Source: an uncultured Victivallis sp. (GTDB taxonomy: Bacteria > Verrucomicrobiota > Lentisphaeria > Victivallales > GWF2-50-93). Taken from it: a DNA stretch of 64,000 nucleotides. The notes beneath the pieces are model-generated. The model was not told where the DNA came from and made no database searches. It saw only the letters and a list, made by a program, of their open reading frames with translations. The stretch is from NCBI GenBank assembly GCA_964540865.1, contig CAZION010000006.1, positions 10,367-74,366 of the forward strand. Direction: 5' to 3'. How positions within the stretch are numbered: position 1 is the stretch's first letter; each line of letters opens with the position of its first letter. This document shows, in pieces, positions 16,614 through 60,069 of the stretch. The translations under genes were made by a program, and so were the position numbers.

Positions 16614-16675
16614 CGCGTGAACGACGTTGTCGTAACGTGACTCATATCGGATTTCGAGCCTCAGATTTCGGATTT
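16614..16675. repeat. Stacked micro-repeats: ACGT-rich tract plus TCGGATT heptamer tract
   Basis: cgcgtgaacgacgttgtcgtaacgtgactca, then tcggatt tcgagcc tcagatt tcggatt (16647-16674). Confidence 0.55.
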
Positions 16676-16862
16676 TATATACGTTAAAGACATAGAATTG
16701 TGGAATTGATTCGCAAAGACGGACGTCTATTCGTGTGTTAGATACAAAAAAACGGCTTACATTGCGCGCTTTGACTCGTAAAGACTCTTGACTTTTTGAA
16801 TTTTGGTGATATGATTTACGCATGCCGCCGTTTTGTGCATTATATTCTTGGAGGGGGTCATC

Positions 16863-26112: not shown

Positions 26113-26359
26113 GGCTAAGGTGTCTCATCCTTCTGACTGCCCGTTCCCTATTGAATGCAATTTGATTAAGCCGGGGCAACGCGTCAGTTTTCTTTGGTGC
26201 AATGCGTCTCAAATAGGTAACGCGAATGGGGAGTACCCCGCGATCTCGGGATTCCGCCGCGGCGGACCAAGTTATTTGCACGCAATGAAATTATTGCAGA
26301 ATGCACCACGGCAACTTATATTATATTGCCGATAACTTATGCGATGTGGGTGTATAAAC

Positions 26360-27334
26360 ATGAGCAACATTGTCCAGTGCGAATTGTGTCCGCGGTATTG
26401 TATGATAAAACCGGGGCAGAGCGGTGAGTGCCGGGTCCGCGTGAACATGGACGGTTCCCTGAAGTCAGTTGTTTATGGATTCCCGTGCTCCGTGCACATT
26501 GATCCTGTAGAGAAGAAACCATGCTTCCATTTCCTGCCTGGGACAAAATCTCTTTCTTTGGCCACGGTCGGTTGTAATCTTCATTGCCTCAACTGCCAGA
26601 ACTGGGAGATATCCCAGGCCAATCCAGAGGATGGCGAGGCCTATTCACTTCTTCCGGATCAGGTTGTCGCAGCGGCAAAAAAATATGACTGCGCCTCCAT
26701 TTCATATACTTATACGGACCCGGTGGTCTTTTACGAATATGTCCTGGACACTGCGAAAATCGCAAAGCCGGAAGGGATAAGGAGCATTTTCGTGACCGCC
26801 GGCTACATAAATCCTGAACCCTGGAAGAATATCCTGAAATACATTGATGTGGCAAGGATAGACCTGAAGGGGTTCAATGAGGAGTTCTACCGGAAAGTAT
26901 CGAGCGCAACCCTTCAGCCTGTGCTTGATGCCATTGTCATGGCGAAAAAATCCGGTGTCCATGTTGAGATCATAAACCTTGTGATTCCTACATTGAATGA
27001 CAAGCCTGAGGAAATCAGGGACATGATGCGGTGGATAAAAACAAATGCGGGGGAGGATACTCCCGTCCATTTTTCCAGGTTCCACCCCCAGTACAAGATG
27101 AAGAACTTGCCGCCGACACCTGCGGAAACCCTTGATAACGCAAGGAAAATAGCGATGTCTGAAGGGCTTCAATATGTCTATATCGGAAACTTGTTGAGCA
27201 GGGAGGCGCAGAACACCTATTGTCCTTCCTGCAAGAAGCTGCTGATAGAAAGAAACGGCTATAACCTGCTTCAGAATAATGTGAAGGATGGACGCTGTTC
27301 ATGCGGAAAGCAGATACACGGGGTGTGGAAATGA
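26360..27334 (+). CDS. amrS: AmmeMemoRadiSam system radical SAM enzyme
   Basis: CELCPRYC, DPVEKKP, GCNLHCLNCQNWEISQ, HFSRFHP, YVYIGN, TYCPSC. Confidence 0.92.
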   Translation: MSNIVQCELCPRYCMIKPGQSGECRVRVNMDGSLKSVVYGFPCSVHIDPVEKKPCFHFLPGTKSLSLATVGCNLHCLNCQNWEISQANPEDGEAYSLLPDQVVAAAKKYDCASISYTYTDPVVFYEYVLDTAKIAKPEGIRSIFVTAGYINPEPWKNILKYIDVARIDLKGFNEEFYRKVSSATLQPVLDAIVMAKKSGVHVEIINLVIPTLNDKPEEIRDMMRWIKTNAGEDTPVHFSRFHPQYKMKNLPPTPAETLDNARKIAMSEGLQYVYIGNLLSREAQNTYCPSCKKLLIERNGYNLLQNNVKDGRCSCGKQIHGVWK

Positions 27335-27528
27335 AACGCAGGGATTTCATGATAAAATTTTCCGGAATCGCGCTTGGTGCAGCCTTTATATCCGGATTCT
27401 TTTGGGCCAGTGTGAAGTCAAAGGATGTTTACCGGAGATTTTTATATGCCGATAAGATGAAAAAATATCCAGGAAGGATAAAGCCCATGGGGGATGAAAT
27501 CAGAACTGAAGGCAAATGGAACGGGTGA
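27331..27528 (+). CDS. Small protein with twin-arginine-like signal
   Basis: MKRRDFMIKFSGIALGAAF; ATGA overlap with the amrS stop. Confidence 0.65.
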   Translation: MKRRDFMIKFSGIALGAAFISGFFWASVKSKDVYRRFLYADKMKKYPGRIKPMGDEIRTEGKWNG

Positions 27529-27658: not shown

Positions 27659-27676
27659 ATCTTAATGGAGGGTGCT

Positions 27677-27946
27677 ATGAAAACATATGGGGCTTTCGAG
27701 GCCAAGACTCATTTCTCCCAGTTGCTTGCGCTGGTGGAAAGCACCGGTGAGGAAATTCTCATACGGAAAAGGGGAAAGGGTGTGGCTGTGCTTATTCCTT
27801 ATGCGAAGAGAGATGATTCAGAGAGAGAAAGGAAGGCTCAGGAGATATTGAACAACTTCAAGATAATCCGGGAATCGCAGGCGGAATACAGATCTGCCGG
27901 GAAAATGACTGCTAAGGAAATGGTGAATTTCGGGAGGAAGAGATGA
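27677..27946 (+). CDS. Phd/YefM family antitoxin
   Basis: GAFEAKTHFSQLL...EILIRKRGKGVAVLIP. Confidence 0.88.
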   Translation: MKTYGAFEAKTHFSQLLALVESTGEEILIRKRGKGVAVLIPYAKRDDSERERKAQEILNNFKIIRESQAEYRSAGKMTAKEMVNFGRKR

Positions 27947-28386
27947 ACAGGAAAGTTGTAATTGATGCATCAGTTTCGGCTTCCTGGTTCCTGCATGACG
28001 AATTTAATCAGAAAGCCGACGAACTTCTGAAAGAGGTGATACATGGGAGAATTGACCTTTTCCAGCCGCTTCTTTGGAAATATGAGATTATAAATGTGCT
28101 TAGGACAGCCATCCTCCAAAAGAGAATTGCCAAGGACAAGGCGATGCTTGCTGTTTCAACTATAAACAGTATCAAGGTGGAATATATTGTTCCTGGCAAT
28201 GAAGACATGTTAAACTTGATGAGGATTGCAGATGAGAATTCCCTGACCGCATATGATGCATCCTATCTCCATACTGCCGAGATGAAATCAGGAGAGCTCT
28301 TTACGTCCGACAAGGATCTGCTTAAACTGAAGAATAAATATTCATTTGTCAGGAGGATTGATGAATTTACGGTAAAATATAATTGA
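27943..28386 (+). CDS. VapC-like PIN domain toxin
   Basis: VIDASVSASW, YEIINVL, LTAYDASYL, TSD; ATGA overlap with the antitoxin. Confidence 0.88.
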   Translation: MNRKVVIDASVSASWFLHDEFNQKADELLKEVIHGRIDLFQPLLWKYEIINVLRTAILQKRIAKDKAMLAVSTINSIKVEYIVPGNEDMLNLMRIADENSLTAYDASYLHTAEMKSGELFTSDKDLLKLKNKYSFVRRIDEFTVKYN

Positions 28387-28462
28387 GAAACTGCAGGCCA
28401 TCCTTTGCAAAGAAGCTAGGTCTTGGTAAATAGGAATGCCTGCTTTATTCAGGGGGAAGATC

Positions 28463-30073
28463 ATGAAGAAATCTCTTTTCTGCATCGTTGTTTTTCTGTT
28501 CTGTGTTTTTTTCTGTCTGGCAGAGACAGGAAAAAACTTCAAGTCCACGCTTGACGGGAAATGGTATCCTGCCGACCGTGCCGGGCTGACAAAACAGCTC
28601 TCCGAGCTGTACAAGGCTGCAGAGGCGGAAGAGTTGAAAGACGTCATAGCACTCATCCAGCCGCATGCGGGATATCAGTATTCCGGAAAAACTGCCTTCT
28701 GCGGACTCAAATCACTCGGGAAGAGCTATAAGAGAATTGTCATTTTGGGACCGTCACACACTATGCACATGACCAACATTCTCAGTGTGCCGAAATATGA
28801 CAGTTTCGAGACGCCTTTAGGAAGAGTTCCGATGGATGTGGAATTCATGGAGAAGCTCCTCAAGCATCCGAGCTTCAAGGATGCTCCGGAAGCCTTGACC
28901 AGGGAGCACAGCGTCCAGATCCAGGTGCCACTCCTTCAATACGCGTGGCAAATCCGAAACTCGAAATCCGAAATCCGAAACACTAGGGATAAACAGGCTG
29001 CCGCCGACGGACGACCGACGCCCCTCCTACGCCAAGGCTTCGAAGGGCAGGCTGACGCCTTCCCAAAAATAGTTTTCATCATCGCCGGGCAGTGTTCGAT
29101 GGACACGGTGAAGGATGCAGGTAAAATTTTGAGGGGACTTCTGGATGACGATACGCTTCTTCTGATAAGCTCGGATTTCACGCACTATGGAGATAATTAC
29201 GATTATTTCCCTTTCAAGGATGATGTGCCGGCAAAATTGAAGGAGCTTGACTTCGGCGCCTATGAAATGATCCGGAAAAAGGACGCAGAGGGATTCGGTA
29301 AATATATTGAGAAGACCGGAGACACCGTTTGCGGGTATGTTCCGATTGAAACGCTCCTTTCAATGCTGCCGGAAAATGCCTGCGCCGTGAAAACAGCTTA
29401 TACTACGTCAGGTGAGATCCTGAAGGATTACAGCAGTTCGGTGAGTTACTTTTCCATTGCATTTACCGGAAAATGGGGTGAACGCAAGGAACCGGAGGAG
29501 AAAAAGAAAACCGGCACGCTGTCTGCCGAAGATAAGAACACGCTTCTTTCACTTGCAAGAAAGACAATCGTATTTTATCTGGATAAACGGAAAATCCCGG
29601 AACCGTCTGATTTGGGCGTTGTATTGCCTGATGGGGTTAAAGAAGAGCGGGCTTGTTTTGTGACACTTAAGGAGAATGGTGAACTGCGCGGATGCATCGG
29701 CGAAATCTTCCCAGGTCAGCCATTGTATAAATCGGTCATTGTCCATGCCGTTGCGGCGGCCGTAAGGGATCCCCGTTTTGAGGCTGTCTCAAAAGATGAG
29801 GTCGGGAAGCTGTCTATTGAGATTTCCGCGCTGACTCCGCCACGGGGAGTTTCTTCGTACAAGGATATAAAAATCGGAACAGATGGAATGGTGCTTAAAA
29901 AAAGCATGCGTTCGGCTGTTTTCCTCCCTCAGGTAGCAACAGAGCAGGGATGGAGTCTCGAACAGACCCTTAGCGCCCTTTCCAGAAAGGCCGGACTTCC
30001 TGAGAATGCTTGGAAGGAAGGCGCAAGTTTCCTGACTTTCCAGGCGGAAGTGTTCGGTGAAGCTGATAAATGA
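28463..30073 (+). CDS. AmmeMemoRadiSam protein B (MEMO1) fused to protein A (AMMECR1), with signal peptide and in-frame repeat insertion
   Basis: WYP, PHAGYQYSG, GPSH, EHS, SSDFTHYG, TVCG; then CFVTL, LRGCIG, DPRF, FLPQV, KAG. Confidence 0.92.
   Translation: MKKSLFCIVVFLFCVFFCLAETGKNFKSTLDGKWYPADRAGLTKQLSELYKAAEAEELKDVIALIQPHAGYQYSGKTAFCGLKSLGKSYKRIVILGPSHTMHMTNILSVPKYDSFETPLGRVPMDVEFMEKLLKHPSFKDAPEALTREHSVQIQVPLLQYAWQIRNSKSEIRNTRDKQAAADGRPTPLLRQGFEGQADAFPKIVFIIAGQCSMDTVKDAGKILRGLLDDDTLLLISSDFTHYGDNYDYFPFKDDVPAKLKELDFGAYEMIRKKDAEGFGKYIEKTGDTVCGYVPIETLLSMLPENACAVKTAYTTSGEILKDYSSSVSYFSIAFTGKWGERKEPEEKKKTGTLSAEDKNTLLSLARKTIVFYLDKRKIPEPSDLGVVLPDGVKEERACFVTLKENGELRGCIGEIFPGQPLYKSVIVHAVAAAVRDPRFEAVSKDEVGKLSIEISALTPPRGVSSYKDIKIGTDGMVLKKSMRSAVFLPQVATEQGWSLEQTLSALSRKAGLPENAWKEGASFLTFQAEVFGEADK
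28949..29059 (+). repeat. Composite repeat insertion read in frame within the AmrB domain
   Basis: aaatccg aaactcg aaatccg aaatccg (28950-28977) and cctcctacgccaaggcttcgaagggcaggc (29023-29052). Confidence 0.8.
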
Positions 30074-44630: not shown

Positions 44631-44990
44631 CACAGGCCCTGGTCGCCAAAGGCGCTGCCATAGGCAGGTAAACATTCCTGCCTGTGTCTTGTGTTGGGAG
44701 TAGCACGGGCATCCTGCCTGTGTGGGTGTGTTCGGGTAGGAGATGGCAGACTTTAATTAGGCGGCTACGGACCGCAGCTCAGAACAATGGAATATCTAAT
44801 TATGGCGAGGGAAGTGAGGACAGAGAATAACGAAGAGGGAATTAAGTTGGAGTTCATCACGTGACCACGTTGGCACGTGGAACGTGACTCACGTGGCGGC
44901 TTTCCTGTCCGCCGTAGCATCTTAGCGAAGGCGGAAGCGTGTCTTGATTATCTTGGATATTGGACATTCCGTGCTGGACATTGGATATTC
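44627..44990. repeat. Hotspot of small repeats of four different kinds
   Basis: GTAG REPs (44627, 44700-44722), CACGT tract (44858-44895), palindrome (44904-44935), TTGGAYA heptamers (44953-44987). Confidence 0.7.
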
Positions 44991-45155
44991 AAAACATTGA
45001 AATTCCTATGCGATATACCAATTACAACTTCTTGCTTTTGGACATGTTCATGCTAATATTGCAAACTATGTTGATAAGTTTTAGGAAGATAGGTAATTTC
45101 AACTGCTGAGGAATCTGTTATGGCTAATATCCCGACAAATACACGGAGTCCTCAT

Positions 45156-55265: not shown

Positions 55266-56642
55266 TTAAATCTTGAATTGTTCCGGATTAGAAAGGAAAT
55301 GCATGTGAATATAGCTGGCGATTACGTTTTTTATTCTAATCCCGGTTGCTGCCCATTTTGAATCTTTCCGCGTCCCTCTGATTTCGAATGCCGGCACGAT
55401 ATTCTTTGATGTGAATTCCGCCTCCGACCAATGGAACTCGTGTCCGCGAAAAACAGTCCCTTTTTCACCAAGGAAACTGCTCTGTTTCAGTTTTATCTCC
55501 CTATAACCAAGGCTGTGCAGCTTTGAGCCCATCTTGATCCTGCATGGAATGACTCCGCACATATTGTATTTCCTTCGCCCGCAGGAAATACTTTCGGATA
55601 GATACATGAAGCCGCCGCATTCGGCAAAGATGTGTCCGCCAGCCTTTGCGAAAGATGCAACAGACTGCAACATTGGTTTGTTTGCTGAAAGTTTCGCCGC
55701 AAATATTTCAGGAAATCCTCCGCCGATGTAAAGGAATTCTATTCCTGCTGGAAGTCCTTTGTCCTTCAACGGAGAGAAAAAGACAATTTCGAATCCGGCA
55801 TTTCTCAACGCATCAAAATTATCTTCATAATAGAAGTTGAACGCATCGTCAAGGGCGATTCCGATTTTCGGTCCTCGGTCGACAGCAGACAGTCGGCAGC
55901 TTGGGAATTTAATTCTTGTCTTTTCTTTATTGATACCTGACGACCAACAACCGACGACTGACGACTTTAATATCTTTTCGATATCAACATGTTTCTCGCA
56001 GATATCGGCAAGGGTGTTGAACCACTTCTCTTTCTTTCTGTTCTCGAATACCGGGACCAGGCCGAGATGCCGTTCTTGAAGTTTCAGCTTTTCATCACGT
56101 GGAATCCAACCGAGCAGGGGCGGCAGTCTGTCTCTCTTAAGCGCGATCTTCAGTATTTCAGCATGTCTCTCTGATGAAACATTGTTGGCGATCACTCCGA
56201 ATATTCTAATCTTTGGACAGTAACTGCAATATCCTTTGACAAGCGCTGAGATGCTGCCGGCCATACCCTTTGCATTGACAACGAGCAATACCGGGACATT
56301 CAAGGTTCTTGCCACATCAGCCGTGCTTCCTTCAAGTTTGCCCGGTTTTGCGCCGTCGAACAAACCCATTACACCCTCGATTACCGCACAGTCTTTATCC
56401 TTGATACCAGCTTCAAAAGAGTACGAAAGCGCACCCGGGACCATCCAGCTGTCGAGATTTCTTGAGGGAGTCCCGCAGGCGGCCTTATGAAAAGCTGTGT
56501 CAATGTAATCAGGTCCGCACTTGAACGGGGCAACCTTGACTCCGCGTCTTTTTAGAGCCCGCAGCAAACCAAGGGTAACCGTGGTTTTCCCCGCCCCTGA
56601 ATTGGTCCCGGCTATGCAGAATGCATAAAATTTATGTTCCAT
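55266..56642 (-). CDS. cbiA: Cobyrinate a,c-diamide synthase
   Basis: SGAGKTT, FKCGPDYID, EGVMGLFDG, ERHLGL, AFNFYY, GGGFPE, AECGG, GHEFH. Confidence 0.93.
   Translation of the reverse strand: MEHKFYAFCIAGTNSGAGKTTVTLGLLRALKRRGVKVAPFKCGPDYIDTAFHKAACGTPSRNLDSWMVPGALSYSFEAGIKDKDCAVIEGVMGLFDGAKPGKLEGSTADVARTLNVPVLLVVNAKGMAGSISALVKGYCSYCPKIRIFGVIANNVSSERHAEILKIALKRDRLPPLLGWIPRDEKLKLQERHLGLVPVFENRKKEKWFNTLADICEKHVDIEKILKSSVVGCWSSGINKEKTRIKFPSCRLSAVDRGPKIGIALDDAFNFYYEDNFDALRNAGFEIVFFSPLKDKGLPAGIEFLYIGGGFPEIFAAKLSANKPMLQSVASFAKAGGHIFAECGGFMYLSESISCGRRKYNMCGVIPCRIKMGSKLHSLGYREIKLKQSSFLGEKGTVFRGHEFHWSEAEFTSKNIVPAFEIRGTRKDSKWAATGIRIKNVIASYIHMHFLSNPEQFKI
55871..55965. repeat. Inverted heptamer element inside the cbiA interdomain linker
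   Basis: gtcctcg gtcgaca gcagaca gtcggca ... tgacgac caacaac cgacgac tgacgac. Confidence 0.75.
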
Positions 56643-58461: not shown

Positions 58462-58567
58462 CCGGTAGCACAATTCTCTGCGCGTTCTTTTCTGTTGGTA
58501 GTAGGCGAATTTATTCGCCGTTCTCCACCTGGGTCTAGGAATGACGCGCAATAAATTGCGCTACTAC
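58462..58567. repeat. REP module right of RAYT, direct repeat of 57748-57853
   Basis: Same length and layout at an offset of 714 bp. Confidence 0.88.
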
Positions 58568-60069
58568 GAACGGAGCCTTAACACGGGCATAAATGTTGAT
58601 TCCATTTTCGTGTTAAATACAACCGCACCGCAGAATTTTCCTGTTTTTAACTTGCCGGAGCTAGATATGTGAATAATATTCGTTTTAGAATCGTAATGCT
58701 TGCGGTATACCCCCTCCGGCACCATCAATCCAATTCTCTTCCCTTCAAGAAGCATAGAGTTCAGCGTCTTTATCATTTCCGGGTTTTCGACTTTCCAGCC
58801 TTCAATTGCGGCCATTTCATCAAACGCCATCAGGTTCTGGACATCTGTTGCTGTAGTGATTACCGCCTGTCCACCTAAGGCTTCGGCTGCGAACTTCGCA
58901 AGCCTGTTCGCCCCGCCTATGTGCCCGCTGAGCAGGCTTACGGCATAATTACCTTTCTGGTCACAGACTATCACTGCTGGGTCGGACGTTTTGCTGTTGA
59001 TGAATTTCGAAATCTTCCTCACAACTATTCCTGTCGCCATTATGAATATGTGACCGGCGAATCCTTTCCAGTTCCGGCTTAGGGTTTCGTCAAACCCGCC
59101 TTCCTTAAAAAATTCCGTGACGGAATTTTTAACCGATTTACCTTTAAACCTTTCAGGCATGAAAAGTGTTCCACCTTTTATGCTGGGTAAAAGCTTGTGG
59201 GCTGTTTCAATGCCTTCGGCTGTTATTGCATAAATTGCGATCTTCCCCTGAAAATCTCCGGTTCTCCTGTTCTCCGATTCTCCGATTCGTTCTTCAACGG
59301 CTTTCCGGTACCCGTGTGTGAATGCAGCATCATAGAGGAGAGACTTCCCGCATTTTTTCCTGTCAAGTGCGTCTCCGACAATTATCATCGCCTGGCGTTC
59401 TATGCCAGCTTTCGTCATTTTTCCTGAAATATTGGAAAGATCGCCCCTGACTATTTTTTCTTCCTTCCACGAGGCCCTGTAAACTACTTGGGCCGGTGTT
59501 TCGGGAGAATAGCCACCGCGTATCAGTTCGGCAGTAAGATTTTTTACGCCTCCTGCGGATAGGAATATGCACATTGTCGCACCGTGTTTTGCGAGGTTCG
59601 CAATTTCCTGTCCGTGTGGAACGGGGGTTCGCCCTGCCTGCCGTGTAAGGATTACAGTTTGCGATACGCCGGGCGCGGTGAGTTCCGTTTTAAGGGCTGC
59701 TGCGGAAGCGAACACTGAACTTACGCCGGGGATGACTTCATATGGGATTTTGAACTTGTCCAGCTCAGTCATCTGTTCAGCAATGGCGCCATAAATTGCA
59801 GGGTCTCCGGTATGAAGTCTTACTACTCTTTTTTCAGAGAGATACGCCTCTTTCATCAATTTTACAATTTCCTGCAAGGAAATTATCGCACTGTCGACTG
59901 TTCTGCATTTGCTTCCTGCGTATTTCAAAATCTCAGGGTTGACAAGTGAGCCGGCGTAAACGATCAGATCTGCCTCCTGTATTGCTTTCAGGCATCGCAA
60001 TGTTATCAGGTCTGGAGCCCCGGGGCCGGCACCTGCAAATATTATTTTGTGATTTGATGATTTTTTCAT
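58564..60069 (-). CDS. cbiF: Precorrin-4 C11-methyltransferase fused to CbiG N-terminal and mid domains
   Basis: GAGPGAPDLIT, YAGSLV, RLHTGDP, LYDAAFTHGYR; then MATGIVVR, DPAVIV, LLSGHIGGAN, VITTATD. Confidence 0.92.
   Translation of the reverse strand: MKKSSNHKIIFAGAGPGAPDLITLRCLKAIQEADLIVYAGSLVNPEILKYAGSKCRTVDSAIISLQEIVKLMKEAYLSEKRVVRLHTGDPAIYGAIAEQMTELDKFKIPYEVIPGVSSVFASAAALKTELTAPGVSQTVILTRQAGRTPVPHGQEIANLAKHGATMCIFLSAGGVKNLTAELIRGGYSPETPAQVVYRASWKEEKIVRGDLSNISGKMTKAGIERQAMIIVGDALDRKKCGKSLLYDAAFTHGYRKAVEERIGESENRRTGDFQGKIAIYAITAEGIETAHKLLPSIKGGTLFMPERFKGKSVKNSVTEFFKEGGFDETLSRNWKGFAGHIFIMATGIVVRKISKFINSKTSDPAVIVCDQKGNYAVSLLSGHIGGANRLAKFAAEALGGQAVITTATDVQNLMAFDEMAAIEGWKVENPEMIKTLNSMLLEGKRIGLMVPEGVYRKHYDSKTNIIHISSSGKLKTGKFCGAVVFNTKMESTFMPVLRLRS
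59255..59288. repeat. 8-nt-period micro-array in the CbiF-CbiG linker
   Basis: tctccggt tctcctgt tctccgat tctccgat tc. Confidence 0.65.

Follow-up and report, generated by a model that had tools for sequence, protein, structure and literature searches.

Very small mobile repeats have reportedly been described in cyanobacteria, as small dispersed repeats, by Elhai and co-workers in 2008. Palindromic repeats inside genes are represented by the Rickettsia palindromic elements (RPEs; Ogata et al. 2000, 2002), which, as summarised in PMC10969869, are about 150 bp long and have a conserved peptide. Shorter elements are the GTAG/CGTC-tagged REPs of PMC3733652, of 20-40 bp and mostly intergenic, some of them located inside ORFs (many in Opitutus terrae) and some nested in palindromes; how the CGTC repeats spread is given there as an open question. 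The Ssn nucleases with their NTS/SRM hairpins form an architecture that their authors noted as IS-like (PMC11893778). Finally, over-represented arrays of 7-mers, mainly intergenic with some intragenic cases, have been described as bacterial heptamer simple repeats and are poorly explained (PMC4692102, PMC4679880).

The repeat-filled loop that we describe here, in the amrB gene of an uncultured Victivallis sp., works like RPEs and intragenic REPs and, as those systems are presented in these sources, is a member of neither, because size, tag and enzyme link differ. The initial annotation of this DNA had drawn the analogy to RPEs, and it holds, since palindromic repeats lie in frame in a gene under purifying selection. 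As with RPEs, the repeats are palindromic, mostly dispersed and found in frame in unrelated housekeeping genes, but here the cassette (P1) has 30 bp, is read in several frames, is nested in heptamer arrays, turns over at one loop and crosses phylum borders. P1 shares with the GTAG/CGTC REPs a tetranucleotide tag, an imperfect hairpin and a mostly intergenic location, but its tag is CCTG and it does not flank RAYT genes; neither 'CCTG' nor 'CAGG' occurs in the main text of PMC3733652, nor do five of the cassette peptides in four supplements. The likeness to Ssn lies in a dispersed hairpin of ~30 nt linked to a small single-domain GIY-YIG gene (here at 27 of 30 loci). However, the SRM pattern is matched by none of the 40 P1 copies, the hairpin is located upstream of the gene and often behind a tRNA (a word absent from PMC11893778), and the nuclease is nearest to UPF0213/SLX1 proteins among PDB structures. 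An array-preferring hairpin cassette or a loop turnover per orthologue is not described in the available text of the two heptamer papers.

The window, a stretch of 64,000 nucleotides, contains a complete AmmeMemoRadiSam trio, with the radical SAM gene amrS (26339-27334, forward strand, TIGR04337 over cut-off) upstream of an amrB-amrA fusion (28436-30073, forward strand) that codes for a MEMO1-like and an AMMECR1 domain (TIGR04336 and TIGR04335; PF01875 and PF01871). The database protein has 536 residues, which places the start at 28463, and the closest named homologues carry Lentisphaerota/Victivallales labels. Assignment to AmrB follows from the TIGR04336/PF01875 match, the MEMO1 fold and the amrA and amrS neighbours. 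The metal ligands of human MEMO1, H49, H81 and C244 (PMC11081632), correspond to H77, H108 and C299, which do not vary among 37 aligned sequences. Between amrS and amrB-amrA the operon is split by a gene pair for a Phd/YefM antitoxin and a PIN-domain protein (27665-28386). By eye, the N-terminus of AmrB-AmrA (28463-28525) is hydrophobic and signal-peptide-like, and a short ORF after amrS (27331-27528) starts with a twin-arginine-like motif, both of them odd for a radical SAM system.

Between PLLQYAW and FPKIV the AmrB domain contains an insert of 37 codons (28949-29059, 111 nt, forward strand) in the frame of ORF 28436-30073, which reproduces the translation first reported, QIRNSKSEIRNTRDKQAAADGRPTPLLRQGFEGQADA (residues 172-208). 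That MEMO-family proteins are short at this point was stated in the initial annotation and agrees with the homologues. The span from the EHS to the SDFxH motif is 94 residues here versus 58 in 96 of the 118 homologues that could be parsed (120 measured, two unparsed; one value of 72 is a regular-expression artefact), a net gain of 36 residues.

The insert is composite. It starts with an AAATCCG-type heptamer module (28950-28982, forward strand) read as IRNSKSEIRN, whose family has 27 matches in the genome, 21 of them intergenic (labels here and below come from a simple ORF scorer and are uncertain near gene starts), against one in the reversed-genome control. The reverse copy noticed earlier at 16647 is a real, intergenic member of the family (16645-16678, reverse strand), and several modules form the arms of inverted pairs of ~100-150 bp. 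Metagenome contigs end at 28949/28950 and 28982, around the module in amrB. The gacg-rich patch of the initial annotation is present, but rather than a mere patch it is a degenerate array of the GACGACC-type heptamer family (30 genome matches, 24 intergenic) interrupted by a palindrome. The left part (28994-29021, forward strand) is the target of the cassette and the right part covers 29052-29059 (forward strand), with the heptamer phase running on from one to the other. The palindrome between them is P1, a CCTG-tagged hairpin cassette of 30 bp (29022-29051, reverse strand) whose opposite strand, stop-free in all frames, is read as LLRQGFEGQA. Its proposed relationship to the intergenic palindrome at 44904-44935 (forward strand) was borne out, the latter being a 32-bp variant within the same family of 40 genome copies, 37 of them intergenic and none found in the reversed-genome control. 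Directly behind this intergenic copy there is a degenerate TTGGACA/TTGGATA heptamer run (44950-44995). The genome is generally rich in 7- and 8-mer arrays; inside long genes we found 21 of period 7 and 15 of period 8, versus one and one after codon shuffling. None of six GxxExxY genes, considered as a source of arrays, has one nearby.

P1 is a discrete unit, inserted without target duplication or with at most a single G, because for 16 of its 40 copies a joined-flank search located an empty site at another place in the genome that is shorter by exactly 30-33 bp. Removal of the cassette from amrB preserves both heptamer phase and reading frame. A 12-nt direct repeat (28994-29005 and 29048-29059) was considered as a target-site duplication and rejected, since the empty sites lose a clean 30-33 bp; the repeat is array similarity. 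On the CCTG strand P1 consists of the 4-nt tag (other NNTG-like tags occur in six copies) and a stem with two conserved G.A mismatches. One stem position covaries, with Watson-Crick pairs in 22 of 31 distinct copies versus none of 10,000 shuffles, and two other positions are not significant. The structure is thus backed by family covariation and not by energy, the cassette alone folding no better than shuffles. The fold energy of the whole insert is likewise indistinguishable from that of shuffled sequences, and an Rfam search gave nothing above chance.

The loop in amrB is a hotspot throughout the genus. All nine same-genus genomes compared have an orthologue, each with a different loop of 11-42 residues versus ~5-6 outside the genus, and in 10 of 10 genus genomes the loop is in frame with differing contents. 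These loops mix several heptamer families and three cassettes (LRQGFEGQA, PSTSSGQA/PFDKL and PASLGNYAE). Database proteins widen the range to between 6 and 78 additional residues. The loop is expanded in all 19 proteins of the clade and the ancestral length is never regained, while outside the clade 2 of 99 proteins have a longer loop, one by way of a short insert (LPAGRQG), and another genus of the family has its own heptamer loop. Two sequences (P0006 and L006) with flanks 99.5% identical differ at the loop by 42 residues, a difference to which a collapsed repeat in one assembly may contribute. P1 has been gained or lost at least three times on well supported branches of the flank tree, and its presence is no more clustered than shuffled labels. 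Conservation of the segment at the protein level had been named as incompatible with a repeat origin; we found a peptide that varies in length and content among orthologues.

The loops in hemW and cobB of the same genus repeat the pattern, with the same cassettes, the same array junction and either orientation, and therefore identical peptides arise convergently (in the hemW analysis the L054 loop was over-extended by the regular expression and three loci were unparsed). Across genomes, P1 is read in frame in 17 or more proteins that can be recognised. The window has a second heptamer loop in frame (55866-55967, reverse strand), inside cobB (55266-56642), whose same-genus orthologues have loop variants of 31-56 residues, two of them with P1 in opposite orientation. 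An in-frame octamer array (59255-59288) in ORF 58564-60069 (reverse strand) lies in the linker between tetrapyrrole methylase and CbiG domains. Further genes of the genome with in-frame heptamer or octamer inserts are hemW (L034), cobD-cobQ (L035, with two inserts), rdgB (L037), L036 and L041-L044, and four SASA-domain paralogues have octamer arrays at apparently the same spot.

The flanks of the amrB loop gave dN/dS values of 0.056-0.126 in nine of ten comparisons (the other one saturated), indicating purifying selection. Stop-bearing heptamer variants (TGA/TAA) were found in 0 of 16 cases in the stopping phase, a count forced by the open frames and taken from kin that are not independent, versus 12 of 27 in other phases and 35 of 49 in intergenic arrays. 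Judging by the kept frame and the avoidance of stops, the insert is likely translated. In the AlphaFold (AF2) model, with a mean pLDDT of 92, it is predicted as a helix extension plus a loop, with pLDDT values of 49-65 for the insert blocks, and a Foldseek search matched the model to MEMO1 (TM 0.87), in keeping with the surface loop expected earlier. Most likely the peptide is tolerated but has no function itself, and is probably neutral, because the loop varies between orthologues, the flanks are under purifying selection and the loop is modelled with low confidence. Hence, the claim that non-coding repeats had been recruited as peptide stands in part: mostly intergenic repeats are kept in frame in a gene under purifying selection, but functional recruitment is not supported, the peptide varying even at 99.5% flank identity. 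The insert probably makes no difference to AmrB itself, but it shows where the protein can accommodate as many as 78 additional residues.

Beyond this genome, the 30-mer of P1 (with three two-fold degenerate positions) was found in at least 117 GTDB stretches and three viral ones. Among the matches listed, at least seven phyla are represented (Verrucomicrobiota, Planctomycetota, Omnitrophota, Patescibacteria, Pseudomonadota, Acidobacteriota and Bacteroidota), a list drawn from 80 of the matches. A G precedes the cassette in 103 of the 120, and in 58 the surrounding frame stays open over 60 codons or more in each direction. Pfam matches across P1 or flanking it on both sides were obtained for 17 of 46 frames scanned, taken from 66 candidates. 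The proteins that carry it include LeuRS, ValRS-type, ProRS-type, PyrD, LysA-type, MutL, an elongation-factor GTPase and an aldolase. The cassette is enriched in arrays: 19 of 120 matches have a 7/8-mer array as their empty junction, compared with 22 of 1983 control windows (~14-fold), while hairpin loops are not enriched (27 of 120 versus 358 of 1983). Within the order, a looser P1 pattern is present in 8 of 10 genomes of the genus versus 5 of 111 others. Four cassette peptides and two cassette DNA strings were not found in a search of the literature outside subscription papers and bioRxiv supplements, nor did a literature search return a paper matching in-frame repeats of this kind in Patescibacteria. 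For annotators, LRQGFEGQA, PSTSSGQA or IRNSKSE in proteins of uncultured PVC, Omnitrophota or Patescibacteria should be taken as repeat DNA and not as homology.

A hairpin related to P1 is also found upstream of one clade of small GIY-YIG genes. The core P1 motif is located just upstream of 3 of 27 small GIY-YIG genes of the family versus 15 of 5269 genes in this genome. One of these three, with 80 residues, has relatives in 118 out of 351 genomes from the phylum. A matrix trained solely on the dispersed copies of this genome scores in the 150 nt upstream of 27 of the 30 best loci, always on the strand of the gene; of the controls, it scores in 1 of 274 windows at a distance and in 6 of 1449 upstream regions of ordinary genes. 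These 30 are the best matches to a query chosen for its hairpin and are partly kin (nine families). A tRNA is present at 16 of the 30. The nuclease had no match in an NCBIfam search, and no paper describing the arrangement of small GIY-YIG gene, tRNA and hairpin was found among the literature open without subscription. Its hairpins begin mostly with GATG/CATG, not CCTG. The present assembly (89% complete) lacks an intact nuclease gene linked to a hairpin and has only a 40-codon match with a reversed hairpin, and G001 and G003 have the nuclease locus (that of G003 with an internal stop) but no exact-pattern dispersed P1. With a crude motif, no GIY-YIG gene was seen within 300-1000 nt of 120 dispersed exact P1 copies, and a viral scan with the nuclease gave two weak partial matches.

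One alternative is an assembly error in repeated DNA. Summed contig depth over the repeats rises ~60-fold, and the whole insert is spanned by no single listed contig. Nevertheless, an artefact, which the initial annotation had raised against its own reading, is largely refuted and we give it hardly any credence, because three exactly matching, overlapping Logan contigs (possibly from the source study) cover 28660-29179 with no difference and a second study has a contig that aligns gap-free over 28951-29054 (nine differences, 91%); similar inserts are moreover found in orthologues from several databases. Scanning metagenomes for additional or split alleles of amrB gave three loci, one of them useful. 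With a real insert, slippage in the heptamers could make amrB-amrA a contingency locus toggled by frameshift, since a single 7-nt unit shifts the frame and length changes very fast between near-identical sequences, as in the pair differing by 42 residues. But none of the 10 genus genomes is frameshifted at the loop, the contigs of eight runs list no indels (contigs do drop rare alleles), related contigs differ at the loop by 0, +60 or possibly -48/-51 nt, the arrays are short and degenerate, and unrelated housekeeping genes show the same pattern. Phase variation of amrB-amrA thus looks unlikely on these sequences, and a slippage switch as the explanation of the locus is highly improbable. Nearly as improbable is recruitment of the insert for a function, be it as a protein surface, in partner binding or as an RNA hairpin tuning translation. 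The expanded loop in all 19 clade proteins could mean some use, and 4 of 11 DNA loci share the phase in which IRNSK starts, a stretch that the model shows as extending a helix, but no residue or length is conserved, identical peptides arise convergently in hemW, and the insert has neither an Rfam match nor a fold distinct from shuffles.

How the cassette moves allows for another alternative, in which the loop is tolerated all the same but P1, as a REP, owes its movement to a Y1/HUH tyrosine transposase (RAYT) or to general recombination, its position beside GIY-YIG genes being regulatory or incidental. Its REP-like architecture of 4-nt tag and imperfect hairpin, insertion without a duplication of more than 1 bp, the 14 Y1_Tnp matches in the genome and the REP/TnpA-REP model (PMC6006769) would fit this. 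We consider it unlikely, as 34 of 40 copies have the tag CCTG and none has GTAG or CGTC, and P1 is near none of the 14 Y1 genes of the genome and near one of 27 Y1 loci at the family level, by which RAYT/Y1 was rejected as a flanked mobiliser. Taken alone, copying of P1 by the small tRNA-linked GIY-YIG nuclease seems to us to stand at a little under an even chance.

The reading that we favour, and hold as probable, is that a tolerant surface loop of amrB, translated without a function of its own, holds heptamers and a cleanly inserted cassette that vary between relatives, the cassette being likely copied in by the tRNA-linked GIY-YIG nuclease. The arrays would grow and shrink by slippage or recombination, with selection removing frameshifts, and gains or losses of 7-mer units could rebalance cassettes of 23 or 32 bp, because a 7-mer array encodes one and the same repeat of seven residues whichever frame is read. 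The small tRNA-linked nuclease may drive the copying, but a nuclease alone leaves the joining of the insert unexplained. More tentatively, and with more doubt than conviction, P1 could be a micro-transposon, non-autonomous and descended from the hairpin cognate to an 80-residue tRNA-linked GIY-YIG clade distinct from Ssn. It would copy itself beside a G without target duplication and home on heptamer arrays as landing pads, the seeded loops turning into hotspots that renew themselves and, in at least seven phyla, rewrite essential enzymes. The genus-wide hotspot, the 30-bp cross-phylum cassette and the candidate cognate nuclease were all missed by the initial annotation. The value of the locus lies in mechanism, that is, in how tiny hairpin repeats spread without a dedicated transposase and why 7-mers are over-represented; exact ends, empty sites, target bias and a named candidate enzyme of 80 residues make both questions testable in vitro.

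Some observations were made besides on the surroundings of the nuclease genes and on other repeats. Small GIY-YIG genes (L193-L222 and L250-L279; G000 C42:23332, C167:14531 and C18:7770) are commonly found at tRNA 3' ends, where duplicated tRNA pieces carry other hairpins, and some are in tandem with a spacing of ~360-400 bp (G159, G262). Another cassette, P3 (31 bp), sits inside the loop of a REP-like hairpin (G000 C123:18852, C296:2948, C66:28680 and others), one copy of which adjoins a Y1 transposase gene. Four-helix-bundle genes of G000 (PF05635, e.g. C14:53335, C46:19592 and C2:9158) have a 7/8-mer array within 250 nt in 7 of 14 cases, compared with 40 of 561 small genes, which may hint at where the arrays originate; some of these genes have arrays on both sides as inverted arms.
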